Assembly (NCBI GenBank): GCA_964187785.1
Contig: OZ076409.1
Span: 33,234,001 to 33,298,000 of the forward strand
Origin: Amphiscolops sp. MND2022
Taxonomy: Eukaryota
Direction of reading: 5' to 3'
Length of the DNA stretch: 64,000 nucleotides
Under the pieces are notes generated by a model, which was given only the letters and a program-made list of their open reading frames with translations, did not search any database and was not told the origin of the DNA. How positions within the stretch are numbered: position 1 is the first letter of the stretch; every line of letters starts with the position of its first letter. The translations under genes and the position numbers were made by a program. This document shows positions 300 to 64,000 of this stretch, one piece after another.

Positions 300-2430
300 G
301 TTAAGACGCTGACTGGTGTGGAAATACAAAACTGATCAGGTAGCTTACGAACTGTGCATTGCTGCATTCAATCATGCTGCATCAAATGTCAACATTTTAA
401 TTGACATACACATGAAAACTAGCAAACATCAAAAACATGTTACTTTGAAAACCTAAACGACGATAAATTTGTCTTTTGCTAATAATGTTGGCAAAAGGAA
501 TCCGTTTTTCACTGCACTTACGAAAGCTTTATTTGCAGCGAATATTCCATTGGAAAAGTCAGAAAATAAAAAACTCAAGTCATTTTGGAAACTTGTTGGG
601 CAAAAGTCATTCGCAACGAGTCAACATTTTGTAAGTTTGTATCTAGGTTTGTACCTACAATGTTTGAGCAAACATTGGGGAAAGTGTAACGACAAGCTCT
701 CACCATTGTCGCCGTAACCATTAGAGTTGGAGGAACACATGATATGGATATTTGCCCGGGACAGGCGCCCATGGCCATGAGCTCATTTTGCCTCCTTCGG
801 GTAAAAACTGTCCCGTCAGAGGAGGATTCCGCTTCTTGTGAAGTGCTCGCCGGCCTGATCCAGTCTTTAATTGCTGTCAGTAGCGCGAATTACGCTTTTT
901 TTTCGAAACTATCACTTAGACAGCCTTTAAAAACGTTCCAAAAGGAAATTATGTTAAATTCTCGTTATTCAGGGTGACTTGGGGAATAATATCTAAAATT
1001 GCGAAATAAGATCTAAAGTTGTCAAAGTAGCCATAAACTTACAACAATGTACAGCAATCTACAGCAATCTTGTCCACAACAGCGATTTGGCAACATCCAC
1101 ATTCAGCTCGCAAGCTGGGGCACCACAGGCACAGATTTGTGAATTAGACGAAAAGACTCATTTTTACGGTTTTCCCTACTTAAGGTAGCATACTGCTGAA
1201 ATCAATGTTAGCACCTTCGAAAGAGTCTAATTTCAGTGGTTTTTGCAGTCTCTGGCGTCTGTTCGGGCGGCTGGCCTTATGTTTTTTCTCGATCTTTGCT
1301 CTTGTTGTCGAAGTAACTGCCAATTTCGTTGAAACAGCGAAAAGAGCAATCACATGCTCAGTGCCACGTCAAACATCGAATTAGAATTTTTGACAAAATT
1401 TTCTGAACATGTTCAAATCCCAAATTTCAATATCGACTGATTTTGCTGTCTCAGAGGGTGCCGTTACAAAGTGAATCATGACATTGGAAATTGCGAATAC
1501 TTTGTTATGATTGATGAGTCTACTGATTCATGTGGATGTTTTTTATTGGTGTTTTTGATCAAAAGATGGACCTAATTGGAAGATCCTTTTGGATCGATAT
1601 GCAAGAATTTATGGAACACGAAAGTGCATCTCTTTGTCAATTGGTGATTCCAACATTGCAATCATTTTTCAAACTAAATTGTCATGAAAAGTTCAGATAA
1701 TTGAGTACAGATGGGGTAAAAGTTTTATGATAAAAACATGAAATGATCAGAGAAACTTGTCGCGCGGTGTTGAACGTGTTGCTGAATTGGATCTTATGAA
1801 AAATCTGCTATCAACCGTTTTATTTTTAGTTGTCCGTAGGACTCGTCAATGTTTGTTTAAACTTTGACTTCGCTGGAAATATTACCTATACAAGATCCGT
1901 CGTGTTGGATTACATTGCTTTTATCGGCATGATGTTTTGCGAAATATATGACGCTTTCTGGGTGTTTTCACGCTTTTGGTCGAAAGTGACTAACGGAATC
2001 AAGAAATAGGTAATCACCGTGAAGATCAAATGAACAACCTGAAGTTACCAACATTGGTAACTTTTATTTTGGGAATCTTCAGACGTCGGAGAAGTCATAA
2101 CATTACTGCAAGGGAGACAAACCAAGCCACAATCAGTTGAAAATGTAGAATAATTAAAGAAGTTCCGGAATTTGAAAATTTTGCAAGCTCTCCTCGGTAA
2201 GGGCGAATCTGACATCGAAAGCGTTGTTAAACTTTTGTGGGCGCCCATCGACAAGAATTCGCCAATGCGTCCTGCTGACCTCAAGCGAATTTTCGCAACA
2301 AAAGGAGACGTGACGATTCCGAAAAGACGATCACTTGCTCTGAACATTGACGCTATCATGTGATTAGTGATTTCATTACAATGACTCTGACGAATGAAAT
2401 GTTGGAAAAGCTAGCGTTTTTAATGCACGT
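300..2430 (+). pseudogene. Decayed hAT-superfamily (CGGBP1-like) DDE transposase, interrupted by solo LTR at 685-1468
   Basis: Fragments: C..C...H..T.KH zinc-finger remnant (~350-440); TKALFAANIPLEKSENKKLKSF (469-590); right after the LTR, YFVMIDESTDSCG (~1500-1535, DETTD-type motif); TDG near 1706; C-terminal MTLTNEMLEKLAF (~2382-2420). Many stops and frameshifts; boundaries approximate. Confidence 0.7.
685..1468. mobile_element. Solo LTR, diverged relative of the LTRs at 4662-5432 and 11429-12201
   Basis: Starts TGTAACG, ends CGTTACA. Shares long blocks with the 4662 LTR (gggacaggcgcccat, gaaaagactcatttttacggttt, gaaacagcgaaaagagcaatcacatgctcagtgccacgtca). Flanked by AAG on both sides (682-684, 1469-1471). 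Confidence 0.9.
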
Positions 2431-2523
2431 TGTAACGCACTTTAGGTGTTTCTAGAGTAATTCTTCGCTCACCTTTGGCTAGCTTTTTTTACGCTTTAAA
2501 ATCCGACCACTGAACGAGAACAA

Positions 2524-2770
2524 CCCTGGTTGAAACTGCTTGAACTTTTTACATGTTTTCGTAGGTTACCAAGATTTCCATGATTTTATAAAATTCTCAA
2601 AGAAATGTCGATGCATTAAATCTTCACTGATTCGATTTAATTTTATCAAGCTGCCTATAAAATGCATCTTAAATTTGGCGGCAATTCTGCACCGCAACGT
2701 TTCGCAGGTTTCATAAAGACGCCGTTCTAATTTTGAAAGCAGCTGAGACCTCAATCAATTTTACCGCGCT
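2524..2770. repeat. Dispersed MITE-like repeat (CCCTGGTTG terminus); second copy at ~35138-35340
   Basis: 2524-2650 is the approximate reverse complement of 35226-35340. 2690-2768 matches 35139-35218 directly. Confidence 0.6.
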
Positions 2771-4661
2771 TTCAATGCAAACAAATTTCAGTCACATGAT
2801 AAGTTTCAAAGTAGCGTCATATTCAGCGTGCTCTTTGACTAACGGTGATGACATAAGGTACATACTTGAGAAACTTACGCGTGAAAACAAAGTGATCGCG
2901 GCGGTGAAGTCGAATTGTTTTCAGTTTTAATTGAAATAGTGGAAGCTGCATTGTAATCCTACAAAATGTTTCCATGCACAGTCCGGGAATTTTCCATGTT
3001 TTATAAAAAAAATAGCCTGCATGTTTCCATGCAGCATGTAAAACGTTCAAGCAATCTCGACTAGGGAAGATATCAAAATGATTATCTTTTTTTACACTTT
3101 CACCTGGCATGCCAAACTGAATGATAAAAAAATTTCAAATGGGTTTTTATTACGCTGTGCTTTTTCATTTGCTCGAAGATTCCATCCCTTATTTTTTGTT
3201 GAAAAAATACCGTTTTTCAAAATCAAGAGAATTTTCGGCACTTTTGAAGGCAGTCTTCTGCATTGTTCTTGATTTTTCGCAGTTAGCACAGGTTTGTGTA
3301 AACCTGATAACTTTTTTATGTTCAGCTCAATGTTTTTCGATTTTATTTTTATCAACTACTCCCCTCAATTCGCAAGTCCTAAACAGTGTCGAATATCTTC
3401 AATTTCCAAAATTGAAAGATTTTTGAGTTTTTTGTATTTGGTCCAGCACTTTTTCAATGCCTTTAAAATACCTAAGGTTTTGAGCTAATTAGTTTTCAGT
3501 CCAAATCATTATTTTACAAATCATACGTAACGTTTTTGCTGCTCGACAATTTATGGGACCAGTTCATAAACAGTCGAATGCAAAGCACTTTTTGAAGCTC
3601 AACGCCCATTAGCAAACTTTCAGAATGGCATCTGAAAACTATGATGAACTAATTCTGGCTATTGACAATGAGCCCTTGAAAACAATGTTAACTCTGACTC
3701 AGCAAATCTAAAACCATAGAAAATACTCAATTTAGAGAGCAAGAGAAAAATTTTGGAAGGACAATATTAAGGTTAATACCCTAACTTTATCACAAAAAAA
3801 TGATCTGATAACTTCGGTCCTTTATTTGTTCAAGACGTTTCTGGAGATTCAGCTACTGCGGCAAGACCTCAAAGCGTCCCATTTTGGGATAAAGCTTAGA
3901 CGGCAATAAACCTCGACCGGTAGTAGTAGTGCAAATTGTCTATTATCATCAAAGAATGATGTTTCACTTTAGACGATCAATGCTGGGCAAGCTAGAATGA
4001 AAATCTGTCCATAGTACAACTGCTGTTTGAAAAGAACGCCAATGACGAAGGACGCATCACAACCACATGTCATTGTGACGTTAAGTAGTTTCTGGAAAAA
4101 AGCAGAGGGGCTATTTTTCCCGAAAGGTAACTTCAACCAAAATGAGAGACGATTTATCACATAAAACCCTGAACAGCAGAGGAAGTCACAAGTGAAAAGA
4201 TTTGTGCTCTATTATACTTGCAAAACACGAATGAAAGCGATTCGAAACTACGATAACGCTAACGCAGGATGACAAATCAATGGAATCCTGAATGATTTGA
4301 GCGTTGTGCTTTTTCCTTTTTGCTTATCACCATTTTTTGGTCCCAATTAGCAATTGAAGTATTTGAAAAAAACTGTTTGATAAGAGGAATAAGAGAAACC
4401 TTTTTTTTCATTTTCGATTTTGGCACTTTGGTTTTCTCGGGAATTTTGCGCTCGGACCTTTTTTGGCGTCAAATATTTTCTTGCCTTCCTGATACACTCT
4501 ATTGTTGAGTGTAACGCTCAATCCTCCTGTATAATAGAACCGGGAACCACCAAAACAATAATGTCAGAACCATCCAAGTTATAGAATCAAGCAGAAGCTC
4601 TCAAGCGTACAAATTAAATACAAGGATAGTACTGTAATTATGTCAAATACCAAAAAGTTGA

Positions 4662-5432
4662 TGTAACGGCAAGCAGTTATCGGTCGCTTAACACGTTAAC
4701 AGAGGTGGAGGAACCTGCAGGAATGGGTGATTCGCTCGGGACAGGCGCCCATCGCCACAGATCCATTTTGCCTCCAGGGGTGAAATACGTCCCGGGGCCG
4801 CGGGTGCTTCGACGAATACTGTCCAACCGGTCCTAGTCTTTGATTGCTAATAGTAACGGGCATCTTTCTGACTCTTTAAAGACCACCGCTTAACTAGCAT
4901 ATAAAAACAATGCCAAGAATAAGGTAAATTTCCAGTTCCAGAGTGACATGTGAATAAGATCTAAAATTGGGGAATAAGATCTAAACTAGCGCTAGCGCTA
5001 CTGAATACAGCCAAAATCACTGAAAATACATGAAAACAGGCACGAATATGGCAAACCACACAGCTAAAAAGCTGGGGCGCAGGGGCTCCAAGCACCAAAC
5101 AAGGATCTTTAGGCGAAAAGACTCATTTTTACGGTTTCCGCTACATAGGGTAGCATAATGCTGAAAATCGATAAAACCGGTGTTAGCACCTCAAAAAGAG
5201 TCTATTTTCAGTCCTTCTTGCCGTCTCTGGCTTCTGTCATGGCGGCGCGCCCGTGTTTTTGCTCGTTCTTGCTCTTTGTTGTCGAAGTACCTGCCAATTT
5301 CGTGGAAACAGCGAAAAGAGCAATCACATGCTCAGTGCCACGTCACACATCGGATTAGAATTTGACAAAATTTCTGAACATGTCAAAGTTGCAAAATCGG
5401 TTGATATTGCTGTACCAGAGCTTGCCGTTACA
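4662..5432 (-). repeat. 3' LTR (771 bp)
   Basis: Direct repeat of 11429-12201; by eye only 5 substitutions and one 2-bp indel. Confidence 0.95.
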
Positions 5433-5444
5433 TCTCTCCCCGGG
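5433..5444 (-). promoter_or_regulatory. Polypurine tract (CCCGGGGAGAGA on minus strand)
   Basis: Abuts the LTR; resembles CCCGGGAGGA before the 3' LTR of the 47576 element. Confidence 0.7.
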
Positions 5445-6573
5445 CTTTATGCATTACGTCCCTGTCATGCGGAGAGGCTGGCATTGAATACATCGCCACA
5501 TCATGAGTGCAATCCACGGGGGTCTCAAACTGGTGATGTTGCAACGGTCCAGTGGCACTGTCATCTTTTGCTGATTGGGCAACCATGAGGTCTTGCCTCT
5601 TGCCATCCAGAGAACCTGCATCGTCCAGAAACTGTTGAAACAGAGCTAGCTCGAGAGCTAGAAAACCAGTACTCAAAAATGCACCTTGAAATTGATCAAA
5701 TCCAAGATTCCATACATCAAAAAAGCACCACTTTTTTAGCACGAGTTTTCTGCAAGAGTCTGAATAGGATCCTGCTAGCACTTTGGTTTTTGGACGTCTA
5801 AAATTTCTTTTACGGAGCGCTCACGCTCCAAAGCGCACGTGGTTCTCAGCAAAACATCTTTTCCACGGCAATAAAGTTTCAGTTTGAGTTTGCAGCACAG
5901 TTAAAAGTTCTTTTCGCTAAGAGTTCTTTTCAGCAGTAAAACCACTGTTTAAAAGAAAGACAAGCTGTTTCTTTGATACTTTTTTTACAGTTCGGGTTGG
6001 TTTGGGCAACACGCACTGATGTGCAGCTCCATACCTGTATAGAGTTCAGTGGCATCTGTCAAGGAGCGCATCAGAAGCAAACTACGAACTGCTCGTAAGA
6101 GTAAGCGCTGGAGTAAAGCAAACAAAGGTAGATCAAATCTTGCTATTTGCAGATCAGGAGCGCGCGCGCTCCTTATTTTTTCAGATATCACGTTGGAATC
6201 TGGAGGAAACGTCTGGAAATCTTGAAAAAAAAACCAAAAAAAGCACCTTTCGGGCGTAGCAATACATGTAGAGTTTTTGGGTTATTTATTGCACTGGGGC
6301 TCCCCGGGCTTTAATCGTTGAGCACCTTCATTAATATAAAGATAGCAATGACTAACAAAAAATGCGAGAGAAAGGATTGGGCGTTGAAGACACCCCTTCC
6401 CCCCTTGAGAAGTAGAATGGCATTTGGACTGGGTAGACATCACCATCCAATAGCAGCAGGACATGCAACAAGCATGAAGCATCAGGAAATCCGATAAAGA
6501 AAATTCTGGAGACTGGGTCTATCTCAAGACTGGAATAGCTGTTCGGAGGACGGCCACGCCTATGTCCCTTCGG

Positions 6574-7437
6574 TCAAAGCGACCATGGTAGAACTTGGCG
6601 TGGTGGACGGCCACGGCGACGTCCATCAAAAAGGGAAAACAGAACTTTTTGCCATGAGTGCTCAAAGTCTGTGCGCGGTGGTCGACCACATCTATGACCA
6701 GTTGGTCGAGTTTTAGCTAAACCACCAGGCAACCAATTGATAAAGACTGGCGGGTCCACCTGAATAAAATCCCGTAGCCCATCTTTAGCAGAATGTGGCT
6801 CAAAGGAGTCTTTCAGCAAACTCGGTAGCAACTTCGTAGTTGATATTAGGGACTTTGTTCCAGGGAAGTGAGAGTTGCTTAAAGAATCCTGCGATAAGGA
6901 AATGGAGGATGAGATAGATACTCGTTCATTCTTCGTATCACTTGAGTAGAGGTTGCGCTCGCGCAACCCATTATCACCGGCGTGATATTCAGGCAAAGTG
7001 TCAGCAATACCCATGGTTGTAGTGTCCAAAGATATTGGGTCCACCCCCATGTCTTTTGTTGGCGGTGTCAATGGTTCTGTTTTGACGTCGTTTGAAACAT
7101 CGATATCGGCATTTATGAGGTGTGCCTGCACTTCTGCATTTATCGACTGCATTTGTGCTAGCGTTCGCGCTAGCAGTTTCTCCCTCCGAAACTTCAGATC
7201 CTCTAACTTCGTCGATCGGTCATGTTCACCTACCATATGGGAACCATTTTCCACCTTCATGACTGGTTCATCGACTGGCTGGGCTACACTGGTGCCCTTC
7301 CCCCTCTTGAAAAAGGAACGGAAGACCTTCCAACGTTTCATTTCAGCTTTAGATGTAGTCCAGAGTGCGTCGCAGGCAGTCAACACTGCTGACTTAAACT
7401 GTTCAGGATCAAATTTCGAAGTTCTAGTGGAGTCCAT
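6574..7437 (-). CDS. Orphan 287-aa protein inside LTR element (coiled-coil stretch, Ser-rich linker, two GRPPR AT-hook-like motifs)
   Basis: Longest intact ORF in the element, ATG start, sense to PBS/PPT. Contains RCGRPPR and RRGRPPR near the C-terminus. No family recognised. Confidence 0.5.
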   Translation of the reverse strand: MDSTRTSKFDPEQFKSAVLTACDALWTTSKAEMKRWKVFRSFFKRGKGTSVAQPVDEPVMKVENGSHMVGEHDRSTKLEDLKFRREKLLARTLAQMQSINAEVQAHLINADIDVSNDVKTEPLTPPTKDMGVDPISLDTTTMGIADTLPEYHAGDNGLRERNLYSSDTKNERVSISSSISLSQDSLSNSHFPGTKSLISTTKLLPSLLKDSFEPHSAKDGLRDFIQVDPPVFINWLPGGLAKTRPTGHRCGRPPRTDFEHSWQKVLFSLFDGRRRGRPPRQVLPWSL

Positions 7438-10400
7438 TATTTATGACCCCTGCCGGCAATTTTTTTGAATCGTGGGATTTGCCTCGTTTGCACCCAGGAA
7501 GGTCTACTGGGCCCCTTCCGTTGGAAAATGAAGGCTTTTTGGGTCTGCCTCCTGTACAGCGGAAGTATTGAAGATTTACAATGATAGATTTTCTGGTGTT
7601 TTTTGAATTTTGTTCAAGACGTGTGTCTGAACAGAGTCAAATTCAGTTTTATCATTCGTACTGGGTACAAAATGACACAGCACAATTTGTCAGCCACACA
7701 AGTCAGAAAACTAACCTTCCGTAGCTGATAATTGCCTCCAGCACCAAGCTAGAGCCTTTTTCAACGATTTTTTGATTTTTCAACTTTTTTATAAAATCAC
7801 TCAGATGGCTTTTACAATTGCTGGAAACGTGGTATCGGGCTCAAAATTGGTCACGCGATCACACATATAGCCAGCTACACTACAGTAACAACCAATGAGA
7901 ATTCAGACCACTGGGCAAGATTTAGATCTGATACTGACGTTCCGTATCACCGTGTCTCGATTGACACGATTTTTCACATGCAATCAAAGACTCTCGTCCA
8001 CAGTGCTGAGCTCTCGAGCTCACTTTTTCAGCAACGGTGCACCAAATGACACTAATAAGAATAGTCCAGGGCAATGTAATCCCAACTTCCCAATAAGGTG
8101 CTCCGATAATTCCCAAAAAATGATCCAATTCGTTACAATACACAGGATATCACAACTTCAAGTAACAAAATGCTATGATCCAGCAAGGCAGCCCACTCGA
8201 TACTGATCAAATATTACACGCACAGCAATGAACGAACTACTGGGAGTTCAAATTAGGGGTTTCCACAGGTTTCCAACACGTAGAAATGACTTTTTTCTCA
8301 CTTTCCCAGTTTTCGTCTCGATGAAACCTTAAACTGATACAATGACCATGCACGTCCAAGAAGAGTCAAAACTAGTTCCAAGGGTCGGCGTGTGCTGAAA
8401 CGTATACAGCACTTCAGGATTGATGTACTGACTTAAAAAGTGAGTCCAGAATCGGGGTATTAGGATCCAGTCACAGGTCAGAGGTTTTCCAGATGTTTTT
8501 TGGGTTTAAAAAAACTCCAGAGGCTAGCGCTAACGCTAGAAACGCAGGATCGACTTCAAGATCAACCACACAACCCCACATAAGTTGAGGTACAAGGGAA
8601 GAATAGTTGATTTGTGCTGAGATGACTAGGTGAAGTTTCAACACAGTACAGACGTTCGGTATCACCGTGTTCCAAGATGTACTGTTTTTCACGTGTCCAC
8701 CCAGATTCTGGCGAACTGCAAAGAGCGCTCACGCTAGTTTTTTTGGGCAACAATACGATAAGCTTGCACTGGTTACGATAGTGGGCAGCAATTTGGCCCC
8801 ACTCTTTGAATAAGGTGTTCAGGCAATCCCACAAGACCGTATAATTCGCCTTCTTGTGCAGTTTGTTTTAGTCAATTTCTCAACAGATACAGTACCAATT
8901 GACCCCAAATTTGACAGGCGCTGCCAGTGGGCACCAGCCACGCTGTTAGAATAGTGAAACAGACGCTGGTAGGCTTGCAGGTGGTCTCTTCGAGGATTTG
9001 GCCCTCTGCTCGTCTCGGTGAGGACTTAAGAAAATTGATGTTTTTCAACGTCCAAGATTTTTCAAAACACGTTCTAAGGCTCGTAGGCTGTTCAAATTTG
9101 CACCGCGCTTTTCCACAAGCACACTGGGCCAGAAAATCAACCTGGTTTGGGGCAAGAAGTCTCCAGTCACCCACAGGAAGAATTTCAAAGAATTTTTGGA
9201 TTTTCCACAAATAGCACCACAACACTCAAGAGGCTCGTGTGTGCACTGGAAGCGCCGTATCGAGCCCAAAATTGACCAGCAGATCTTAGGTACACGTAGG
9301 TTTACGAAAATGAACACAGAATTGAGCTGCACCCCTTCTACACAGTTTCACCTAGGTACAGACGTGCGGTATCACTATGTACCAAAATACACTGCTTTTC
9401 ACGTCTTTTTCACGATTACGGTCCACTGGAAGGAGCTAGCAAGCTCAAATTCTCTGCAGCAACGTAAGAACTAGCACAAGTTACGATGGTGGGCTGCAAT
9501 ATAGCCCCACCCGTCGGCTAAGGTGCCCGGGTTACTCGGAAAAATTAAGAAAAAACTGCCTTTTTGCGCACCTTTTTGGGTGCCACGTTTTTCCTATTTT
9601 CTCAACAAGTATCACACAAATTGGCACCAAACTTGGTAGTTTATGCCAATGGGCACCTACAATGCCACTAAAAGGGTCGAATTAAAGCGCGAGCGCTTAT
9701 TTGAGGTTTCGACTCACTATGTACGTTGTACACGAAAAAACACTGTTTTTGACAACTTTTTTCACAAATCGACCAAGAGGATCACCTCAGAAAGTGATAC
9801 GGCAGGCAAAATGGGACCAACGTGTTGCCCTACTATCCGTAGCACTGGGATAAACCCTCAATTGGTTGTGCCCGTTGGGTATAAGGCACTGACAGTCCTG
9901 CAGTTTTGGATTTTTTCGGTCCTCTGACGCTTCTCTGAAGTCGAAACGTCAGAGAGCTTTTCTCGACTTTGGTAACCGATACGCTCAACAAAATTTCGAC
10001 ACTAACGTAAATTTTGGTGGTAATTACGAAAATGCAACCACTTTTTGGCTAGGGTTCAGGAATCGATGACCCGACCCTAGCTCAGAGACAGTCCGGTTTT
10101 GTGGGAACTTGATCAAATTCAGTGCGTTTTTCCACTTTTCTCAGCACTGAATGGGAGTTTTTACACGCCGTTTTCACCACCACGCGTTATTTTTACTACA
10201 AAAACAGAAAACGAGAGCGCGCAGGCTCCCAGGTCACGAAAACACTGAGTGCCCCAGAGGTTTTTAATGATGCACTCTGGCACTCCTGAAACTCGCCAAA
10301 AATCAAGGTTTTTCGACCTCTTCTCACCAAGAAAACGTTACAAGCTCTCTTAAATCCTATTTTTGGTACTGTGGACTGTGCCCCAAACTAACAGCAGCAC

Positions 10401-11395
10401 GGAAGAGGCAATTACATCACAATCCAGCACTCGCCCAGTGGCATTTCATAGTGGTTTTTTGCCAATTTCGCCAAAAACCGTGTTTTTTCATGCAAAATGT
10501 GTTTCAAAAAGGACTCCAACGGCCTTTCTGGTTGTCGTTACATTATGTAGCATAACCTTCAAGGATTTGGGCTGCTTCCTATTCATTTTTGCAACTACTG
10601 TGGCTAATACTTCGAGCGCTCGCGCTCGTACCAAGAAAAGTACTCAAAAATGCCAAAAATCACGTTTTTGCGACTTTTGCACTAAAAATCGCACTTTTTT
10701 CACAGAAAACAGGTGCAAAATTACACAATCAGTTGCAACAGGGTAAAACTAGCATGCACAAATGATTCCCCGTCAAAAAATACACAATCTAAAACTTTTT
10801 TCATACCATACTCCAAAAAACTGATTCTTGCGGAATGAGGGGTGGTACCTTCGCCGTCTTTTTTTCTCAACAACCAGACCAGCCAGAGAGAAACGATTTG
10901 GACCGTCGGCAACGTCAGAGTTTGTTCTAGCTTTCCACCAAAAACCATGCTTCTAGCACGTCTCCACGGGAAATGGGAAAGGAGAGTCGGGAACACTCGT
11001 TTCAGCTCATCTATCGGTCAGATGGAACATGGCGCATCCATCAACTGAATACCTCGTACATAGCCAAAAACGCTGAAATGAGCTGTAAAACACTTGTTAC
11101 CACATGCGTAACGGCTTTCTAGCTGTTCGCTAAGCCATTACAAAGGTACCCGCTGATGGGAACGTGCAATTTTAGACGATACCTGTCAACAAATACCTGT
11201 TATCAAAACGTACCATAGGTTTTCGGAAAAATCCCCCGAAAGACTGGAAAAACACCAAAATACAACGTCATAACATCTAAAAAATTTGGAAAAACTCTGG
11301 GTAAACGTCTCCTTCCAGAGTCCAATCGTTCTTGGCGTCCAATACCAGCGGGTCGGAAATTTCAAAACCATATAATAGGGCAGTAATCGGAAGCG

Positions 11396-11413
11396 ATCCC
11401 TCTGTGGTCGCCA
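11396..11413 (-). promoter_or_regulatory. Primer-binding site, tRNA-Arg(TCG)-like
   Basis: TGGCGACCACAGAGGGAT on the minus strand, identical to 48310-48327. Complementary to a tRNA 3' end ...UCCCUCUGUGGUCG-CCA, resembling metazoan tRNA-Arg(TCG). Confidence 0.8.
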
Positions 11414-11428
11414 AAAAATGAGGTCTCA

Positions 11429-15190: not shown

Positions 15191-15488
15191 ACAAACAAAG
15201 CTTAGAAAAAACTTCGAACAAAATTTTTTTCTCAAGTAAAATAATTTTCATTCATGTCTGTGACAAATTTTAATACCCACAAAATTAAAAAAATATTTTT
15301 CACTAAACTTTTGAAAAATAATTATTGAAAAACTTTTATTTAAACTATTTGTTCTTTAATAACAAGAAATGAAGAATTGCAGTAGTTGTAATTTAGATTA
15401 TAAAAAATCCTCAAACTCCGATCGTTATAAATCAGTAAAAAAATCTTGGAAAAATAAATCAGTATTTTTGTAAAAATGTGATTTTCAT

Positions 15489-48293: not shown

Positions 48294-48309
48294 TCTGGAA
48301 TAGTTTTTA

Positions 48310-48327
48310 TGGCGACCACAGAGGGAT
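48310..48327 (+). promoter_or_regulatory. Primer-binding site, tRNA-Arg(TCG)-like
   Basis: TGGCGACCACAGAGGGAT, 16 nt downstream of the LTR end. Confidence 0.8.
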
Positions 48328-51250: not shown

Positions 51251-53900
51251 GTGGACACTCTCACCGAAAATCTTCTTGACTCTACCATCACAGAAATATT
51301 CTCAGAATTCATGCCTGACTACGTCTCCAACTCAGAGCAGATTACAGAAATAACAGCTGCAGCCGAACAGCCCAGTTCGTCGCCAGCTTCCCCCAATAGC
51401 GCCAATCTGCTAGATAGTGCTGAAAACGCCACGCAAGGCAATGCGTGGCCCCCTCTAGAAGTCACTGACTATAGTTTAAAGGAATGGCTAAATTCAAACA
51501 ACAAGCCATCATGCGAACTGAGCACCGCAGAAGAAATCACATCGCAAGATAGCGATTTAGCCACTCCACTGGCGGCTCTCCGAACCCCATCAATCCACAG
51601 GGACCCACTGCGTTCCCTTGCACTGACCAATAGTGCAGATCGAGAACCCTTTTCAAGCGCATACACTCAACAAGCAGGACCATCTAAGGCATCGAACAAC
51701 CAAAATGAAAACCCGCCCAAACAAATCGAAGATAACCCACTGCGGTACGTCTTCAAAACGCCCCCACCAAGAAGCTTGAGCTTCGGTCTTGCAAATACTG
51801 AACGACCCACCTACACGCCTAGCTCCAAAACCAGTGCGGAAACAGCCCCAGATTCCACCGTCACGAAGATACGAAAAGAGTCGCAGGCAGTCAGAGAAGA
51901 CTTCCGAACCAGTCTCGCCCAACGATCCCAAGTGCACTCACGATTGGCACGAGAAAATGGCGAACACGCGATGCGCGCCGACGCCATCATGAGGGACATG
52001 GACAAAATGAGAAAAAGACTCCCGGAAATACAAGCGGAAGGACGCCAAAACCAAGTAAGACTTGAAGCATCAATGGCCTCGCTCAACGATCTAATCAAGC
52101 AGCGGGAAAACCAGGCCGCCACTCGCATGGCCGAAATGTCCGCCGTGATGAAAGAAAGAGATCGTCAAGCTGACAAACGCCTGAAACTAATGACTGACTT
52201 AATGCAGCGCAGGGAAACCGACGCAGACGCCCGTATGATAAATTTGATGACCACAATGAAAGATCTGACGTTAGGAGTGAGAGCAATGGCATCTCAAACA
52301 GTCGCTGCACAAGCGAAAGCAGCGCCAGCGGCGCCAATCGCACCCCATTCCAGCGACCTACCTTCTACTAGTGCAGTCCCGCCCCCACTGCAAGCCACCT
52401 ATCGAAAAGTAGCACTACCCAGCGTCGAGCAAACCAAACCACTAAAGCTAATACCGCCCGCAACATACAAGAGAAATCCCCCAAAAACCAGCAAAATGGC
52501 GAGAATCCTCCAGACTGAGTCCCGCAACGTTGGCACGGATCCACTGTCTAGCATCTCTCTTGATCCCTATGCCCACGGTGCGGTGCATCAGCGACGGGAA
52601 ACTATTATTCACCTGCGAGCGGAATGACCACGAGAGAGTCAAACTACCGCACTGCAAGGACCACAGCAAGCACCAACCAGCCGAAGCAGGCATACATAGA
52701 TTTGGTCTCGCCGGTGGCTACTAGCACACAGCGTAAACTTACGACTAAACGAATGTTGGAGCAAGACCCAACCGAAATGGGAGAAACCCCAGAATCTTCG
52801 AATCCAACCCCCGATAACCCCAGAACAAGTCAACGGCATGCGCTGGCAGAAGCCATATCAACCGCGATGTCGAAGGGCCTCGAACCACTACTGGCAGTCA
52901 AGGAATCAAAAATCAAACCCACGAAGTATCGGGGAACGAAAGATGGCAACGCCGACGGATGGATGATGTTAACGAAAAGCCATCTGGAAAAAGCGCACGC
53001 CATGGCAACCACCCTCGATAAAGCCTGGACAATTTTCAAATACCTTGAGCACGAAGCCAGAGATTACATCATTAACAAGTCCGAGGCGGAGAGAGATACT
53101 GACGAAAAGGTCTTTGCGTTGCTGACACGCCGATTCGGAACGGGATCAATCAAGATTCATATCCAACAACAATTCAGAACCAGAAACCAAAACAGCGAAG
53201 AGGACTATATGCAGTATCTAGACGCCCTTGAAGGCCTAGAAGAAGTAACCGTTCGACGATACGAAATCATGCGAAGATTCATAGAAGGAGTACGCAACTT
53301 TGAGTTAAAACGAAATCTCGCGTTAATGAATGCTCCGGAACAATACGTGGAAGCTACTCCAACAACGGAAGCGGTCCGCTTCACTGTTCAACAATACCTG
53401 CGCATGCGTGGCTCCTCGCATCCAGAAAACTATCAAATGGCCCCTCAGCACACAACAACCCCCACAACCCCATCAACAACCGAAACTGCCTCTGGCAGTT
53501 CCCACTCCAGCACAACTTGCTCAACAACCCGTCCAACAACCACCGCTCCAACAACCTGCGCCATATAGGCAACAACCTCAAAGAGCGTGTTTCAACTGTG
53601 GCGACCCATCACACTTTGTAAAAGACTGCCCACTAAGAGATCGCGCAAGAAAGCCGGTACAACAACATGTCAACTCTTGCCATACAAACCCATCCGGAGG
53701 ATGGACTTGCTCATCTCAACCACACGGAATAAAAAACGAAGCTTACCCTGCGTCATTACCAATCCAGGGAACTGTAGCCTTCTGCGTCACTTGTGGCTGC
53801 ACCGAACACTCAGCATCCAAATATATCGCCCCAGAAAACCCCAAGCAAGAAGATCAAATCAGGGCAGCATGGTATACCCCTCAAACCAGCCAATTCGATA
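51251..53900 (+). pseudogene. gag: Gag (long disordered/coiled-coil N-terminus, capsid, zinc knuckles), frameshifted
   Basis: Coiled coil at ~51870-52290; capsid-like KPTKYRGTKDGNADGW...FRTRNQNSEEDYMQYLDAL...RFIEGVRN; CFNCGDPSHFVKDC knuckle plus a degenerate second CVTCGCTEH. Confidence 0.88.
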
Positions 53901-54395
53901 ATTCGTCACAGGATGATCAAGTCCGAGTGATTTCAGTAGCTGAAGCCGGAGGCCCATCACGGCCCATTGTTGTCACTTGTGGCGAAAAACAGATGCTCAC
54001 CACGCTGGAGGCACCCGCGCCGGACTGCACTGGGACCCTCATTTCGATCCATCTGCTCCTTTCGGCCGAACAAAAATCACTCCCCGAATTGACATTGGCC
54101 CAGCTAGAGGAAAAGCTATGCAGAAATACCTTATACACTATCGTCGCTCAACCACTACCGCACTTCGCCAGAGAAGACGAAACCAAACTGGCACCCATCC
54201 AAAAGGTAAAGACAGACAGTTTCTCGAGTCCCAGTGGATATCCATGTAGATGGCGTAGACATGAAATTCGACGCATTAGTAGTCCTAGAAGGACACTTCC
54301 CGCAGGGACTATACTTAGGCCGCCAAGAACTGCAATGCTAAAATATCGGCGTCCAAGACGCACAGGGGGAAGCTAGGATAGACGAAAGGGTTTCA

Positions 54396-54857
54396 TTGGT
54401 AGTTGCCTTTGGCACCACCCTGCAAGAACCCATCCCGCTGTATGACATGATAGACACAGGTTCAGGAGTCTCCATCCTCTCACTTTTCGCACACCAAAAG
54501 ATCGCCTCCGCCCACACCTTGAGCCTTCTACCATACGATATCCAACTGTTTGCAGCCAACGGCAAAACCATTAACACCATCGGTATAGCCCAAAACGTAA
54601 ATTTCCAACTAGGTGGTCACACGCTGAAAACGAACTTCATCGTCATCGCAGATCACTTGGGAGCAGAGGACTTCTTGTTAGGCCGCAACTTTCTGCGCAC
54701 CTCTAACGTCCTCTTCGACATAACTGCAATGAGAGTCACCATTCGCGACCCCAAAGCTCCTCGCCATTCCAAACCAATCCATGAGGTTAGTAACCATGAA
54801 CCTTCCCTAGTTGTTTCCACTGAAAAAGTAGTATTAGGCCAATTTGAACTGAAACTT
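54396..54857 (+). pseudogene. Retropepsin aspartic protease
   Basis: MIDTGSGVSIL, LFAANG, FLLGRNFL. Confidence 0.9.
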
Positions 54858-55630
54858 TGTACGACCGATTCGGGCAACACTTGACTGTTAGTCATGATTG
54901 ATCACTTCACTAAATTGGCAGAAGCCATCCCATGGGCCCACGACGAATACGACGCGCAAACCACGGCTACGATCATCCTCAACAAATGGTTTGCCAGGCA
55001 TGGCACCCCAGCACGGATGCAATTAGACAATGCGACAAACTTCACGGCTGAAATAGCTCAAGAATTAATGAAGGCATCGCAAGTCACTAAAGTGACGTCC
55101 ACGCCCGCACATCCAAGAGGTAATGGACTCGTCGAACCCCAGAAGAGAACCTTGCTTACCTTGCTTAGAGTCTACACGTCACGCAAAATGCAAGACTGGG
55201 ATGAGCATATTGACGGAGTGTTGGGTGCCTATAACTCGACTCTCGCCGTACATGCTCCAACATGGCCCAGAAAAATCCATTCCACTGTCATTCATATACC
55301 CAGAATTCGCAGCACGAGGATTCGACTCTAACTAGGTATTCGTAAAACACCTGCTGGCAAGGCAACAAGAAATCCATGAGTTAGTTCGAAGAAATACCCA
55401 TCAAGCCCAGCCCAGGCAAAAATTGAAATTTGACCGCCACCTCAAGGCAAAAGCACACGCTGTTGGCGACGCTGTTTGGGTTTTCTGCCACATAATCCCC
55501 AAGGGTGACACCCACAAACTGATTCGCGCATGGCGCGGACCCCACAAAGTAACCGATGTATTACAAGACGGACGTCTCTACGTACTTGATATTGGCCAAA
55601 AGGTCCATTATGAAAGATTAAAAAAACACG
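54858..55630 (+). pseudogene. Integrase core (N-terminus deleted) and GPF/Y-like region
   Basis: GNT*LLVMIDHFTKLAEAIP, LDNATNF, TPAHPRGNGLVE, YNST, VGDAVW, WRGPHKV, VHYERLK. Confidence 0.92.
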
Positions 55631-57940
55631 TACACGCCCCTTGTGACTGTGCCACACACCAACCCTTCGGACCAAACCAGAACGTAGCCACAATAGCCGA
55701 TCCATATGTGGAGGAATCTAATGAAGAAATCACCTCGGACATCTCCTGAGATTCATTTCTACCGGAACAACTCCCAGAGCCATCGTTCGAATTAGAACCA
55801 ACAAGGCCGGTTCGCCCGCGAACTATCCAAACCCGCACACAGACTGCTCTAGAACAGGGAATCCCACGAAGAAGATTCAGTCACTTCGATTACCCATCCG
55901 ACTCCGACTCAGATCCAGCAATAACAGAACCACCAATCCCAGACCCAGCTCCCCAGGCGGTATTCCCAGAACTCGACGACTTGGATCCCCTATTCTCCGA
56001 TCAAGAAGAAGTTTAACCAGAGATGCTCACCGAGAGTTTGATACCATCACCCTCAGGGACATCAGTTCCATTGTTATCCAACCCATCGCTTACAGACACC
56101 CTAAGCAACTTCCCCGTCTTCGTCCTGAGTGAGTCAAGACCCTTACCACAGGCAGAGCAGCCACAAAGGACCAATACCGAGCAGGAGAGTCAGAACCTTG
56201 AAACATCCACACTCCCAGTCCAACCAAACGATACAAGCGGACGAGGAAGACCACGAGGTAGACCCTCTGGTCGCAGAAACCAACGTACTACTTCCTCTAG
56301 TAGGGACGCAACATCTTCTCGGAAGCCACCGCTGCGGTCCAGAAAAGGCCCCAGAACGAGATTCTCTACTAGAGCCCAACCTGGAACTCACGATAGAGCC
56401 ATGAAGTTGCCTGAGATTCTTGAGAGCCCCTCATCCACTCAATCCGGCTCACGCGGAAATGTTTCAACACAGGCACCACGATACCAGCTACGAGCAAATG
56501 GAGCACCACGTTATAAATGTGGAACCTGCGGTTCCCGTAACTGTACTTGCGTACGCCAGATCATCATCGAGCCTCCGAATCTTCGATTGGCCCGGGGAGC
56601 GGTGATCCCAGCTTGTGAGCTCGCTCTGGCACGCACACTTCAATACCCGCAACATAGGATCCTAGCTGTGCGAGCCCAACGTCAGGAACACGAACTCTCA
56701 CCTATTGTACGACACATCATCGTGACCGTGGAGAAGACCTATACCAGTACAGAATCCGGAGTAGTGCCACCTCTAGAATCCACGTTAAAAGCAATGCATG
56801 ACTCTTCCTCTGACTGCCCTACTTACCGCTTTAAAGAATGGACTTCTAATGAGCGTGGTGGACTGGAATGTACACTAACCGCTATTATTCCTCCGTTACC
56901 ACCCTCAATTACTTTCGGAGAAGTGGCTAAAGCGTGCACCAATACACAGATGATTCGTTGCATCAATGCGCACCATTTATGGGAGAAGTATCAGGTGGTC
57001 TTCCCCCCCGGGTGACGTCCACCAACCTACCCACGGCTGGTCGCTCTTGGTCACTTCCCTCGATCACTCCTCCCTAGTTTCCCCAACAACGCTATTGATA
57101 TGTCTGGAAAACTTGCGCACCCTCGTAGAGGTAGATGACACTCTCTGTTTCCACCTTGCCGTCATCTACCGCGGAAAGTTTTTGAGTCAACATTGGTTAC
57201 AACTAATAGCTATCACCTTCTGCCGACAAGCCAAGATCCCCATCTTAGATCGATTAACCTACACACCGGAAGCGCCAATCACTCCCCGCAAAGCCCTCTC
57301 TGTAATACACGACTGGTCATGCATCAATATGGGCGACCGCCCCTTACGCCACACGGTATGGGAAGAGCGTCGAGCAATTTTCGAACATTTGACACCACAG
57401 CCAATCGACATCAACGACGACGCTGCAGGAAAATGGCTCATAACGCAACCAAGAACCAGACCAAGCTACGTGCCCTGGATAACTTACTCCAACACGGATA
57501 TCCTACAGGCCCCAGGCACCGTAGTGCTATGCTGTCCAGCAGACTCATTTTCTTACTCTGCAACAGCTTGCTATGTCATTCGCGAATATGGGCAAGAAAA
57601 CATATTCCGCCTAAAGCCGTCAGTCGGCACAGCCGTACGCTTGGACCGCTCGCCTACTGCACCCTGGAACAATCAAATTTTTCTCCTGCGTACCGGAGCC
57701 TCCAATAAACATCCGCTACTGCATGAAACCCTACACGCATGCCTCACGCATCTCCTACATCAACTCCATCAATGTCGCGTCACGCGATTTCACTTGCCCA
57801 TCTATGACCCAGAACGATCAATCAACTTATTATCAACTTAATACGCCACGCTCCGCAACCACTTCACGGGTCATTACCTAGAAATAATTCTCCACGACCG
57901 CGTTTACGTTTCCATTGCATCGGTAACTTCGTCCATGTAA
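55630..57940 (+). pseudogene. Long Pol C-terminal extension: acidic/Pro-rich linker, GRP motifs, Cys cluster, two macrodomain-like modules
   Basis: RGRPRGRP, PRYQLR, CGTCGSRNCTC, then TDILQAPGTVVLCCPAD...YG...VGTAV...IFLLRT...LHACL...VTRFHLP...F...LEIILH, matching the Poa1p/TARG1 macro pattern. Confidence 0.6.
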
Positions 57941-58289
57941 GGATCACGGACATTCCCTGAAACTGAAAGGCCAGAGGCCTTCCCGTTTTTTTCTCCACCA
58001 CTCTTTCATATGTTAGTTCCGTATGACAGAACGCACTCTAGCTCTTTTAACGATCGAGTATCATAATAAAGACCTTATAGTCCTAAGCACTGTCTTTTCC
58101 AATTATATACCCCTGTCTTTGTCCCATCTGCTTTCAGTCTGTTCTCGATCTATCCTTTTATGTTCACTTGCAACTTGCGTTTCAGTTTTGTCCTGTTGCT
58201 TCGCCCTTGCGCAGATATCCTACATTGCACCATCACCTTGGTTCGCCAATTTTGTTGTATCACCCCCAGTGCTATCCAACCCACCATCA

Positions 58290-61200
58290 ATGGATGCTTC
58301 TTCACGCAATCGTTTGCCCGCACCTACCAGTCAATAAAACCAACGATAACGTCCTGCCAATTCCTCCACTACCAGCACCCCTACCTCTGTTGGCGAGGCC
58401 AATGGTCGAGTCGACCAGCTTGCCTTAGTCCAACAAGCGCTACAAAATGGGGCCACCCCCACAATGATCGCTGGCTTTGCCATGATCATAGCCCAGATGC
58501 AAGCGCAAGCAGCGCACCCAGAAGTTCTACTAACCATCACCAGTAGCATAGGGCCGCTTCAGCGTTCCGCCACCTTCCGCGATGGAGCTTGGCATGGCTA
58601 CGACCTGACTCATAACCTAATCGATCCACGCTCCCACATGATTTACGGAGAACCTACCAGGCCTCCCATGGACCAAGAACGATCGTTTAGAATCTCCCCG
58701 ACTACCATACAACTACCCCCAATCGCAGGCTGTGGCCCCTTCCCCCGCCGATACAACCTACAACATTCAACTGCAACCTACCCTTAGTTCCTCCCCCAAT
58801 TTTGACACCACCCATGCCCATGGCATCTGAAAGCGTGCATTCATTCACACACTCGTCAACTAACTTCATGCTCCCTTCCGCCTTTCAGGGGGGAGGGGTG
58901 CAAGTGAGTCCAACCGAAAATGAACAAACCACAACAGAAGGACAGACAAGAGAAAATCGTCAAAGCAGAACGGTCACCTTCGAAGACTCATACGAAGAGT
59001 TGACGCCATCCTCATCTAGAAGCGAACCTCCGAGAAACAAACATAGTCGCCTGATAGGCTTCCAGAAAGACCCCAAGTTGAAAGAACGTCAGCGGGAGCA
59101 ACAACGGACAGAAAGTAAAACCACCAATGCCCCCATAGACCTTCGAGATAAACTCAATGGTGGAAAGAGAGCCGGGGAACAAGGCGACCAATCGAGTTCA
59201 AGAGGGAACAGGGGAGTTCCAGCCCCTTCGCCTAGTCAACCAGAAGCCGGGAGACAAAACGTAACAAGAGAACTGCTCACCGCAACAGAAATAAAACAAT
59301 TGGACATAACTGCAAGAGACGCAGTGCGTCTCCAACGAGAAATTCCGAAAGCATCTGATGAAGAGAATCCCTCAAGGCAAAAAATTGAAAGTGCAACCAG
59401 TAAAGGAGACTATGCAACACAACGCACTATAGAGAAGGCCAACATTGGAGTGCTCTACACAAGGCCAGTTAAACAACCGATATTCACAAAATGATGGAAC
59501 CCCGCCATGGTTCGAACGTCTCCGAAGGGATTTACACAGAGATGACTCCTCTTACCTCCAACCCTTGCAGACCATTAGCGAGCGGCTTACCCGTCAAAGG
59601 CCTGGTAGATTCGGAGAAAACCAACTGCAGACCAAAAACTACGCTAGAGACCCAATTACTCTACTGCCAATGTGAAAAGATTTGCTACAGAAAACGAGGA
59701 TCGCACTCTTCGTCGACTCGACAATCAAATCCTCGTACAACGCCAATAACACCTTGATTGATGTCAGATTGATGAATCTGCCCTGCACCTCGCTCGGCGA
59801 GATGGTGGAAGTCACTGACAAAATATTCACGCCAGCGGCGGCAGAACCAATACCCGTACCCTCAATCTTGGTATCCTCAAACGTGATCGATCACCTCGCC
59901 TTGCGAGGAACGTTGAGGTATTTTGATATGCAACACACCCGGTTCACAGAAGGATTCGTAACTGATGAAGTAGTAGCCTATGTGGAAACGATGTCTAACA
60001 TCGCCACGAGGATGAGAAACAAAAAGCCAAATACATATACCGTGATTGTGTCACCCCCTGGGTTCATATATCTCCCAAGAGCATTACAACAATTCTTGTA
60101 TCTGGTGCTAGAAACTTCTTATGCAAGGGACTTACATTTTTATTTTGTAGCGCCAAACCTCAGAATCAATGTGACAACATCGCGCCCTTGTGAAGCCTCT
60201 TACCCCGCTTTCTTAGCAGAAATATCCAAGGCCGTACAAGGATACACTGTATATAGGGGAAATTCGCAACTTCTAGTCGACGAGGCAACAGCTTATGACT
60301 ATGGGATGCAAATGTCGCCCAGATCGTTAGACGAAAATGGTGTGTGCCAGGTGAACGATCCTAATGAACAAGAGCGCAAACACCTTGTGGATAATTTATG
60401 GTGCGAACGGAAGGACGAATCCTCTCTAGACGATAAGACCCATGATCCAAAGTTCCACAAAGAGCTACTAGCTCTATTCAAGGTGACGGAGACAATCAAA
60501 ATGGAGCCAAAAAACACCACAGTGTTTCCAATAGCTGCTATATCAACAGACGCGCAACCCGGAATGGTATCGCCCACACTGACACTACTGATAGTGATGG
60601 CACGGAACCTGGCAAAGCAAAACGAGACGAAACCCAGGCAAACCTACCAAAAATGGCACCAAGCCTTGCGCGAAACTTTAAATCAAGTCGCTCTGCGGCT
60701 AGAAATTCCGTTCCCGGTACTCCTATATAACATATCCCCATTCTGGCTCCCAGTTTCGTACAAACAGAATATTACTTGGACGACCAACAGACACGCTTAT
60801 ATATGGAAGCTATGCAAGGAGCCACGATAAGCGAGATCTTGGGATATTTGATGGCAGTCGGGCTACACACAGTGTTCAAAGGACGTTCTGGCCTTCTTCA
60901 AAAACTCATCTGATAAAGGAAGCTTGTCTCTCTTCAGCTTCTTAGTGTATGCCCAGAACCAAAAGAATTAGAATTGGCTACAAGCAATCCTATACGCCTT
61001 GGACCCAGCAGGTCCCTTACAGTTAAAGAAAAGCAACTGGAGCTCAACATCGAAACCCTCCTCGCGTGGATCTACTCCACCTGGGTCAACGTTGCAGGAA
61101 TAATGCATCCTCTGGATGAGAACCCTGCAGTCAACAGAGAACCCAACCACCTCCCAGGTTTCTTGTTCCCCTCGCAGATTGCCACACTCATGCTGGTAGA

Positions 61201-62408
61201 AACGGAAGACCTGATACCCCTAATCGCCCCCATACTTTGGCCAATCGTCGGTGCAGTTATGGCGTTGCGATTCCCAACGCAGGTCCTGCGAGTAGCAGCA
61301 AATGCCCCTTCCCTTTCTATTCTACACTTTGTGATATCGGATGGATCCCAGCGGGGTCCTACCTACCAAAGAGCAGTCAGCAGCTTTGCCTCTCTACGAC
61401 CACCCTTGGCCTACACAATCATCAAAGACAAGAAACAAGTGGAACACAACTTCGCATCAATTATTCGAGGACGTGCGCGATGCGCCCTCCCACTGCCCAT
61501 GGAGTTCCACCCAATCGAATGGCTACACATTCCCCTAGATCGTGAGACAGGCGCGGCGGAGTCTTTCGCAAACTGGAATGCAGAAGTAGTCCTGAGAGTT
61601 CTAGACACAATAGTCCAGAGACTGGGCGGCAGGAAACGAGGTGAAGAAACCACCGGGTTGCGATACCCCTATGTTTGCGACCCATCACATGCCATCGAAC
61701 CAGCCCTCGTGCATGCCCAGCTCGCATCCTGGACGCAACGACGTGCTGGTCAAAACCAGAATTGGTGGACTTGGCTGTCAAAATGAAAGCCAAAATAACC
61801 TTGGTGGGCAAGGAACCGAACAAAAAGACCTTGCCAATCAGCACAGAGGTCCCTACAATCCGCGCGCTGCGCTGGAAATTATTCCTAAATCTGCACAGCA
61901 GACAAAACAGAAAGGACAGTCGGTTGGCGAAGATTATGCACGTGGAATCCAAATCTTCAGGAGACTATTTGTGCAATATGGTCACCCAGAATTAGCCAAT
62001 AGCCTACCCGACTTCCCACAGGGAAGTACCTCTGACCAAAACGTTACAACAAGTGCGACTGCCCCTGGCAGTTCACAACAGTTATCAACAGGCATACTAC
62101 CCTCGAACAGAACCGAAACACGAATGGAAGAAGATCAAGAAGACTCACCCATTATTGTCGATCCTAACGATGAGCCAATGACGGACGACAACTTCATCTT
62201 ATCGGATGGGGGAACTCCTGCCCAAGACGAACCCGAGGCGGGAATATCGCAAATGGATGCAGCCGACATTGAATCCGAGCTAGATAATCTGCTAACTATA
62301 GACGACTCTGTTCAATATCCTCCCTTGGTGGCGGATCCTTCTGCAAACCCAGGAACAGCAGTCACATTATCCATCCCTGACCCACAGCCGAATCAAAATA
62401 ACAAATAA
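58290..62408 (+). pseudogene. Extra sense ORF in env position (roughly 1,350 codons if frames are joined), with SGNH-hydrolase-like core
   Basis: Chain of long co-linear ORFs (58464, 58802, 59682, 60974, 61641) separated by single stops or frameshifts. RIALFVDS...LPCTSL...ILVSSNVIDHL...RNKKPNTYTVIVSPPG recalls SGNH blocks. Confidence 0.65.
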
Positions 62409-62974
62409 AGAAGCTACCTACGCTAACCAAGTAGAAACTAGACAGAGAAACACGCCAGTTACTTTCAAAAACATAAAAACTTTGTTTTGTTTGAATGGCC
62501 CTTTGTCATTTACTTTCAGTTTGTGCTATATACATTGCATCCTCAAGCGATATTCACTATATACATTATGTTTTGAAAAGTACTCGCTTAAATTTTTGTT
62601 GAACCGCATTGCGTTACTGGGCCCTGAAACAGTGTCCACCCCCTCCCACCTGGTAATTCACTGTTGCTACAAAGATCCAAGTGTTATTACTCATGCAGTG
62701 CAAGAGCAATTTTAAAAGAATTTTTTTAAACCCAGACTGTTAATTTTAGAATCAACTGTCATACTTGTAATATTATCCAGTACTCCTAAACTTGTTAAAG
62801 CCTGTCAACACTAGTGCGAAAGGAAATAATAGGAAAAAAGTAGAAAAACAAAAGAAAAAGAAATGAAAACAATAGGGTTTTGTCTGATTGTCTAGGCGAC
62901 TCTCATCGCAGTTACCCTCTGGGTATGATCATCCTCTCATTTGTCGAGGACGACAAACTACGGCCCCGGGAGGA

Positions 62975-63689
62975 TGTAACGCCAGCCACCGGCATGACAA
63001 AATTTCGATGAAAATTTCGAAATGTGCGATATCAAAACAGCACATTCAAAATGGCCTACGTAACAGGTACCAAGACGTGAACGAGAGAAAAAAAGTGCGC
63101 GAAAGCAGAGCAAAAAAGAAAGCACATGAGAAGATATCAAATAAAGAAAGAAGAACGCGATGGAAAAAAGAGAATTCAGCAGAAAAAAAAATCAACCAAT
63201 CGGAATGTTGTGCCATCTCTCCGAGAAGACACCCGAAAGTGAAGAATGATGCCAGAGGCCGAGTCGATGAAGAACCCTAAACTGTAATGTTGTTGGTTCT
63301 TATCCCCGCATTTGGTTGTCATTTATCAAGTATTTGGGTGATGTTGGACCTACTAGGTCTCAAGTTTAGAACTCATTCAACAAATACAATGTATTTCAGC
63401 TAGACAACTTTTTGGACGTCACAAGTATGTAGGAAGTCATAGGAACCTGCTAGAAACCCTAGGATACGTTTTTACAGGCTTGTGGGGCTCGTCTGGACTT
63501 TGAGAGTGCCGGCGCGTTGCTTCGGAGCTCTAATTTGGGAAGCCTCTTTGACGATAGAAAAGTCCCCCTAGGAGACTATTTTGGGATTAAAAATTAGTGA
63601 CTAGGGATGTAGTAAGAAAACGGTCTCCTGTTTAAGCACCCTAGGCATTGTCCCTCCTCCTAGATGTGCGTCGCTAGCCGGTCGTTACA
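62975..63689 (+). repeat. 3' LTR (715 bp)
   Basis: Preceded by CCCGGGAGGA, followed by TSD CAA. Confidence 0.95.
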
Positions 63690-64000
63690 CAAGCTCTAGT
63701 TCCTCTTAGTTGAGAACATGCTTTCCTAAAAAATTTGGCCTTCTTGAAAATTTCCCATAATTGTTTCCAGAGCCCCTGCGTGTGTTGTTCTGTTGAAGTA
63801 GTTTATCTGCTGTTTCACATTCTTTTTGTTGCAATGACTCAATGAAATCGTTGCTTGAAATGCAAAATGATCATTTTCAGTTCAAATTTCAACACGTGAA
63901 CGGAGAATTAATAACGTTTTTTTTTCCAACGCGTTTGCCTTGAGCCAGTTTTATATTCCAAACATAATTTAGAGACTCTTCATCAACATTCAACTTTCAT

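Follow-up and report, generated by a model that had tools for sequence, protein, structure and literature searches.

A stretch of 64,000 bp from the genome of Amphiscolops sp. MND2022 (contig OZ076409.1, positions 33,234,001–33,298,000 of the forward strand; referred to here as the window, with the coordinates below being window positions) contains three insertions of retrotransposons with long terminal repeats (LTRs), each flanked by a target site duplication (TSD) of 3 bp. The 3 bp TSD was found to be a genome-wide property of the lineage to which these elements belong. The lineage falls in the Ty3/Gypsy group, and its short TSD most likely arises from a 3-base stagger made by its own DDE integrase, acquired independently of Troyka, a group for which TSDs of this length have been described. 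On the best reading it is a variant of Ty3/Gypsy that represents a second independent origin of a 3 bp integrase stagger.

TSD length across the genome

The duplicated triplets in the window are AAG at 682–684 and 1469–1471 (solo LTR), TGA at 4659–4661 and 12202–12204 (7.5 kb element) and CAA at 47573–47575 and 63690–63692 (16.1 kb element), and none of the three continues into a fourth base pair, as an initial annotation of the window had stated. Its further claim that all members end TGTAACG…CGTTACA was true of all five LTRs in the window; in one subfamily of the lineage the LTR starts with TGTAGCG instead.

A search of the 1.07 Gb genome with the three window LTRs returned 90 loci, of which 45 yielded 33 scorable insertions (21 single LTRs and 12 pairs), the other 45 having no partner or no clear end. 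An exact 3 bp match was found in 29 of the 33, and 19 different triplets were represented among these 29. Copies with long open reading frames (ORFs) gave exact 3 bp matches in 5/6 (one with an altered 5′ end was unscored) and 9/10 (one was without a pair). In the pooled set the match was exact over 3 bp in 43 of 47 insertions, also over 4 bp in a single one, located inside a T run, and over 5–7 bp in none. When the pairing of flanks was shuffled, the mean number of 3 bp matches was 1.8 and the maximum in 10,000 shuffles was 9, so the observed 43 cannot be attributed to chance. A further sample of 20 junctions was chosen to represent untested subfamilies. Twelve were unscorable, being tandem or having no second LTR in reach, and six of the remaining eight had an exact 3 bp TSD while the other two had one mismatch. 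The total for the lineage is thus 49 of 55 scorable insertions. Tandem elements with a common middle LTR were recorded at L559, L591, L593 and L036.

To compare other families in the same genome, 20 copies from other Gypsy families were examined, 12 of which could be scored, partly by eye. Their TSDs were 5 bp in nine cases and 4 bp in three, and the short TSD is therefore a trait of the lineage rather than of the host. In one Gypsy family (L171–L173) the LTRs end in AA rather than CA and start with TG or TA, and the TSD, determined by eye, is 4 bp.

Empty sites, target sequence and the position of the ends

Empty copies of the target were available for insertions within other repeats, and the triplet was present once in those for L035, L350 and L354. 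The overlap was 3 bp in 9/10 empty-site matches of L350 and in 7/7 of L354. The flanks of the solo LTR in the window, compared only with loci from the other searches, gave no empty-site match. A and T predominate in the target triplets (97 of 129 bases, p 0.01), particularly at the centre (36/43, p 0.007), and an A three bases before or a T three bases after the triplet was found at 44 of 86 positions (p 0.0003, one of eight such tests).

An ordinary 5 bp stagger would look like a 3 bp one if the ends of the elements had been wrongly set and the terminal T and A belonged to a target of the form AxyzT. We give almost no weight to this explanation. The solo LTR in the window happens to fit it (A-AAG-T), but no more than 4 of 43 sites have A and T where it requires them, and TG and CA are likewise present at the inner LTR ends, beside the primer site and the polypurine tract; mis-set ends are excluded on these two grounds. 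The single triplet in the empty sites argues in the same direction.

Architecture of the elements

When the genome was searched with the integrase fragment from the window, 19,810 candidates were obtained, and open frames of approximately 3,250 aa were numerous among the matches. The LTRs of the lineage are 710–784 bp. Long copies are 15–19 kb and have one gag-pol frame encoding, in order, a CCHC zinc knuckle, protease, reverse transcriptase (RT), RNase H, an HHCC zinc finger and the integrase core. The knuckle is CX2CX4HX4C, the D,D,E triad is intact in the long-ORF copies and the RT motif, which was read from these copies as RT is deleted from the family A copy in the window, is AYIDDIV (YIDD). 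A WRGPH module of the GPY/F type in the integrase aligns with YVGPF of Ty3 and WRGPF of relatives. Deletion derivatives were found beside the long-ORF copies, in agreement with the earlier suggestion that the lineage has both autonomous-derived and non-autonomous members.

The primer site is an 18 nt match to the 3′ end of the host tRNA-Arg(TCG) with its added CCA. It lies 15–16 nt from the LTR end, compared with 0–1 nt in the control Gypsy families with 4 or 5 bp TSDs. The LTR-end and primer-site pattern was present at 3,851 junctions in the genome, against 27 for a control pattern. Of the 3,851, 100 junctions were listed, and almost every one of these showed the 15–16 nt offset, behind a T run. 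The same pattern gave at least 120 raw matches in viral contigs. Families of the lineage use two primer sequences, one of which is also found in a relative from another dataset (L220), where the offset is apparently 7 nt. Folding the RNA of the LTR–spacer–primer-site junction revealed no common structure among six sequences (z −1.0 to −2.8). The primer tRNA of the lineage is that encoded by a tandem array of tRNA-Arg(TCG) genes at C9:57.54–57.58 Mb (L170), which has a period of approximately 173 bp and accounts for most of the 255 pattern matches listed.

The C-terminus of pol is predicted to be a TARG1-like macrodomain. With a profile built from this genome alone TARG1 ranked first, weakly (E 0.13), a single-sequence fold reached a predicted local distance difference test (pLDDT) score of only 36 and a plain PDB search gave no match. 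A model with relatives included in the alignment (pLDDT 77) matched TARG1 at E 3e-9, and the relatives exceed the Pfam cut-off for Macro. Family A also has a second ORF of approximately 1,400–1,600 aa, which had no Pfam match in the part scanned and for which an SGNH/GDSL fold is a weak lead. In another dataset, L214, L217, L218 and L221 have the same layout, with a multi-knuckle gag, a Macro-type domain ending pol, which in L221 exceeds the Pfam cut-off, and a second ORF of 1,500–1,700 aa that by eye retains SGNH-like motifs.

Phylogenetic placement

The top solved-structure match for both regions of pol was Ty3 (integrase, E 3e-30; RT/RNase H, E 2e-73 to 4e-73), and the RT-RNase H region is 40–44% identical to generic Gypsy proteins. 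In FastTree phylogenies the lineage formed one clade with support 1.0. It is nested in a larger one, supported at 1.0 in the RT-RNase H tree and 0.999 in the integrase tree, that also takes in relatives from other datasets with 48–54% identity in RT-RNase H, and this larger clade lies among Gypsy-type sequences. The trees, from which near-identical copies and multi-domain chimeric matches were omitted, include few named references and have weak deep nodes. The RT and integrase trees gave matching clades and thus no sign of an integrase swap. The other features of Ty3/Gypsy are also present, namely TG…CA LTRs, a tRNA primer site, a polypurine tract and the order protease, RT, RNase H, integrase; the 3 bp TSD departs from the 4–6 bp of the group, which is a typical trait and not a taxonomic criterion.

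The initial annotation had proposed a Troyka-like lineage, and it was correct that Troyka is reported to have 3 bp TSDs. The available text of the 2025 account (PMC12440569) describes this TSD for no LTR group other than Troyka, also treated as Kuafuorterviruses, and Troyka has the same domain order. In that account Troyka has CG…CG ends (CGCCA…TGGCG), LTRs of 100–400 bp and a CX2CX8-10HX4C knuckle, and its integrase is described as lacking the GPF/Y motif; its RT motif is given as IADD, VADD or LADD (PMC11673190). Apart from the TSD, none of these five features is found here: the termini, LTR length, knuckle spacing, RT motif and GPY/F-type module all contradict Troyka, and sequences of the Ty3/Gypsy type are those with which both RT and integrase cluster. 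The proposal is therefore not supported. The congruent trees also speak against acquisition of a Troyka-derived integrase by these elements. A scan for the Troyka LTR-end and primer-site motif gave one match in the genome, equal to the control count and with no RT nearby, and no RT-bearing locus emerged from the motif scans. That the elements are Troyka, or carry its integrase, is very improbable.

Two further placements were considered and rejected. Gmr1-type elements, like Ty1/Copia, have the integrase before RT. In the long-ORF copies RT and RNase H precede the integrase, and the adjacency of protease and integrase in the window is due to a deletion. A DIRS-like recombinase or a DNA transposon making 3 bp TSDs is ruled out by the DDE integrase, the direct LTRs, the primer site and the variable triplets.

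Origin of the short TSD

Integrase joins the two CA ends of the element to staggered bonds in the target, and repair of the gaps creates the TSD; in retroviruses the stagger is 4–6 bp and its length is ascribed mainly to the spacing of the active sites and to bending of the target (PMC10045372, PMC4422553). As in the initial annotation, we consider an unusual integrase stagger to be the most likely mechanism here. The offset of the primer site implies that a long end has to be trimmed. After reverse transcription, 15–16 extra bp would remain past the right-hand CA and would be cut back by the integrase. Strand transfer of the two CA-3′ ends to host bonds 3 bp apart, followed by gap filling by host repair, would then generate the 3 bp TSD. 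Deleted copies such as the element at 4662–12201 would be mobilised in trans, and solo LTRs would arise by LTR–LTR recombination with the TSD retained.

Three changes were found in the integrase core of all aligned families with 3 bp TSDs. Ahead of the first helix, a loop is lengthened by an insertion of 2 residues; following the second catalytic Asp, D-x-G is replaced by D-N-A; and TPYHP is replaced by T[AP][AG]HP, with loss of the aromatic residue. The set of three was absent from eight control integrases of the same genome and from the outside relatives. The changes may contribute to the short stagger, and are proposed as candidates only.

Alternatively, integrase could make a cut of 4–5 bp, with the duplication later reduced to 3 bp by host repair or by processing, such as that of the long overhang which an offset primer site leaves. 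The offset was common to the subfamilies listed and absent from the controls with 4 or 5 bp TSDs, so end processing is unusual here. The same-host controls retain 4–5 bp, arguing against general repair as the cause, and an outcome as uniform as the one observed, with both element ends intact, would be hard to obtain by trimming. Troyka, moreover, produces 3 bp TSDs with its primer site next to the LTR (PMC11673190, supplement). We regard trimming as unlikely, and a 3-base stagger by the integrase of the lineage remains the preferred explanation.

Several observations weigh against this interpretation. The exact 3 bp match was absent in 6 of the 55 scorable insertions, the overlap was 4 bp in 1 of the 10 empty-site matches of L350, and the empty site of L009, in a T run, gave an overlap of 2 bp. 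For the family A and B insertions in the window, 19 and 19 loci, respectively, yielded no empty site. Central pyrimidine–purine steps were not enriched in the target (20/86 against a background of 22%, with small numbers), which is a poor fit to the retroviral bending rule, by which shorter TSDs go with more flexible steps of this type at the centre, if that rule is simply extended to 3 bp. The three integrase changes represent a single phylogenetic event, i.e. a correlation with n=1, and two Mag-like controls with 5 bp TSDs also have no aromatic residue; it is for these two reasons that the changes are treated as candidates. The trees contain neither Troyka nor named reference clades, and the exclusion of Troyka is thus based on features rather than on a joint tree. 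The long metagenome contigs of relatives hold no LTR pair from which the TSD in other hosts could be scored.

Features of the window

The positions of the features are listed in Table 1. Over one end, the LTR of the family C solo insertion and that of family B have approximately 81% identity. The family B copy retains the leader, part of the 5′ end of gag-pol and the 3′ region of the 15–16.5 kb copies of that family; the pol enzymes are absent, and one other copy has the same layout. In the family A copy approximately 2.8 kb present in the long-ORF copies is deleted. The zinc finger of the integrase is lost with it, as are RT and RNase H, and protease abuts the integrase as a result.

Table 1. 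Retrotransposon features in the window
Feature	Position	Strand	Remarks
Solo LTR, family C, 784 bp	685–1468	−	TSD AAG; strand judged by where the primer site lies in paired copies of family C
Non-autonomous deletion derivative, family B, 7.5 kb	4662–12201	−	TSD TGA; LTRs 99.1% identical
3′ LTR, family B, 771 bp	4662–5432	−	
Short polypurine tract adjoining 3′ LTR, family B	5433–5445	−	Read from sequence
15 nt spacer and 18 nt primer site matching host tRNA-Arg(TCG) 3′ end, family B	11396–11428	−	Primer site at 11413–11396
5′ LTR, family B, 773 bp	11429–12201	−	
Decayed element, family A, 16.1 kb	47576–63689	+	TSD CAA; LTRs 92.8% identical; frames broken
5′ LTR, family A, 718 bp	47576–48293	+	
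16 nt spacer and 18 nt tRNA-Arg(TCG) primer site, family A	48294–48327	+	
Broken gag	51251–54376	+	CX2CX4HX4C zinc knuckle at about 53582–53632
Aspartic protease remnant	54342–54881	+	Followed by deletion junction near 54840–54849
Integrase core and GPY/F-type module remnant	54885–55746	+	
TARG1-like macrodomain remnant (predicted), pol C-terminus	57440–57930	+	Bounds approximate
Second large ORF remnants	58350–62408	+	Weak SGNH/GDSL-like lead
Short polypurine tract adjoining 3′ LTR, family A	62962–62974	+	
3′ LTR, family A, 715 bp	62975–63689	+	

Other features were noted in the window. A high-copy short repeat with an internal palindrome, resembling a miniature inverted-repeat transposable element, is found at 47330–47569 and ends a few bases short of the point where the family A element is inserted. 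A tandem duplication of approximately 4.0–4.3 kb with 94–97% identity lies at 12367–20615, with an inverted related copy at 33011–34440, and an assembly gap of 200 N is at 22492–22691. An ORF at 46252–46797 on the minus strand had a weak match to GIY-YIG (E 0.004, below the cut-off) and is possibly a Penelope-like remnant.

Novelty and significance

In the literature searched, which lay outside Repbase and most subscription papers, no lineage of TG…CA LTR elements with 3 bp TSDs was found. The 3 bp TSD, though real, may already be on record, in Repbase or in other papers, for the present Gypsy clade or one related to it, which would affect the novelty of the finding and not the mechanism. A range of 3–6 bp has been given for LTR retrotransposons with the groups unnamed (PMC10045372), and the sources outside the search are those in which such a record could lie. 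Set against this, the 2025 paper on Troyka, for which Repbase was a source, gives 4–6 bp for other LTR retrotransposons in its available text (PMC12440569), and the search itself turned up no such report. A prior record is possible but doubtful. On balance we lean towards a previously undescribed clade of giant Gypsy elements that carry a macrodomain and occur in several hosts, and whose integrase, of the standard TG…CA kind, may have moved below the limit of 4 bp known from retroviruses and from Gypsy, Copia and BEL through a few changes in its core, perhaps while trimming an end of 15–16 nt rather than 2–3 nt.

Programs that detect LTR elements commonly default to a TSD of at least 4 bp. Those demanding this length would miss, or assign the wrong ends to, approximately 3,850 elements in this genome. 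If the interpretation is correct, the lineage is the second of LTR elements with a 3 bp stagger, and provides a pair of close relatives for finding the determinants of stagger length. With a 3 bp Gypsy integrase beside 4 and 5 bp families in one genome, and candidate residues in hand, the question of what sets the stagger becomes testable. Troyka has been proposed as a superfamily with the 3 bp TSD as a hallmark (PMC12440569); as the trait also occurs in a Gypsy lineage, it is not by itself diagnostic of Troyka.

Comparison with known systems

With Troyka or Kuafuorterviruses, as described in the available text of PMC12440569 and PMC11673190, the lineage has in common the 3 bp TSD, the order gag, protease, RT, RNase H, integrase, usually in one gag-pol frame, and the presence of non-autonomous derivatives. 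It differs in having TG…CA rather than CG…CG ends, LTRs about 2–7 times longer and a length of 15–19 kb, compared with Troyka internal regions of 1.5–7.7 kb. Unlike Troyka, it also has a standard zinc knuckle, YIDD, a GPY/F-type module, a macrodomain, an offset primer site and, in some families, a second ORF.

Ty3/Gypsy elements, both Ty3 and the families in this genome with 4 or 5 bp TSDs, resemble the lineage in their TG…CA ends, tRNA primer site, polypurine tract and domain order, and in the CCHC, YxDD, HHCC, DDE and GPY/F-type motifs. The lineage is set apart from them by a TSD of 3 bp instead of 4–6 bp, the offset primer site, the terminal TARG1-like macrodomain and the three changes in the integrase core. 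Vesta of bdelloid rotifers, in which ORF3 is of the GDSL/SGNH type (PMC5408684), likewise has an extra downstream ORF, the possible SGNH fold being a weak lead in the lineage, where the ORF is approximately 1,400–1,600 aa and had no Pfam match in the part scanned. The available text of the Vesta paper (PMC5408684) makes no mention of a TSD or target site. Finally, DDE DNA transposons with 3 bp TSDs, which include most IS3 subgroups and Zator, have inverted repeats and are without an LTR, RT or primer site, but demonstrate that a 3 bp stagger is workable for a DDE enzyme (PMC10045372).

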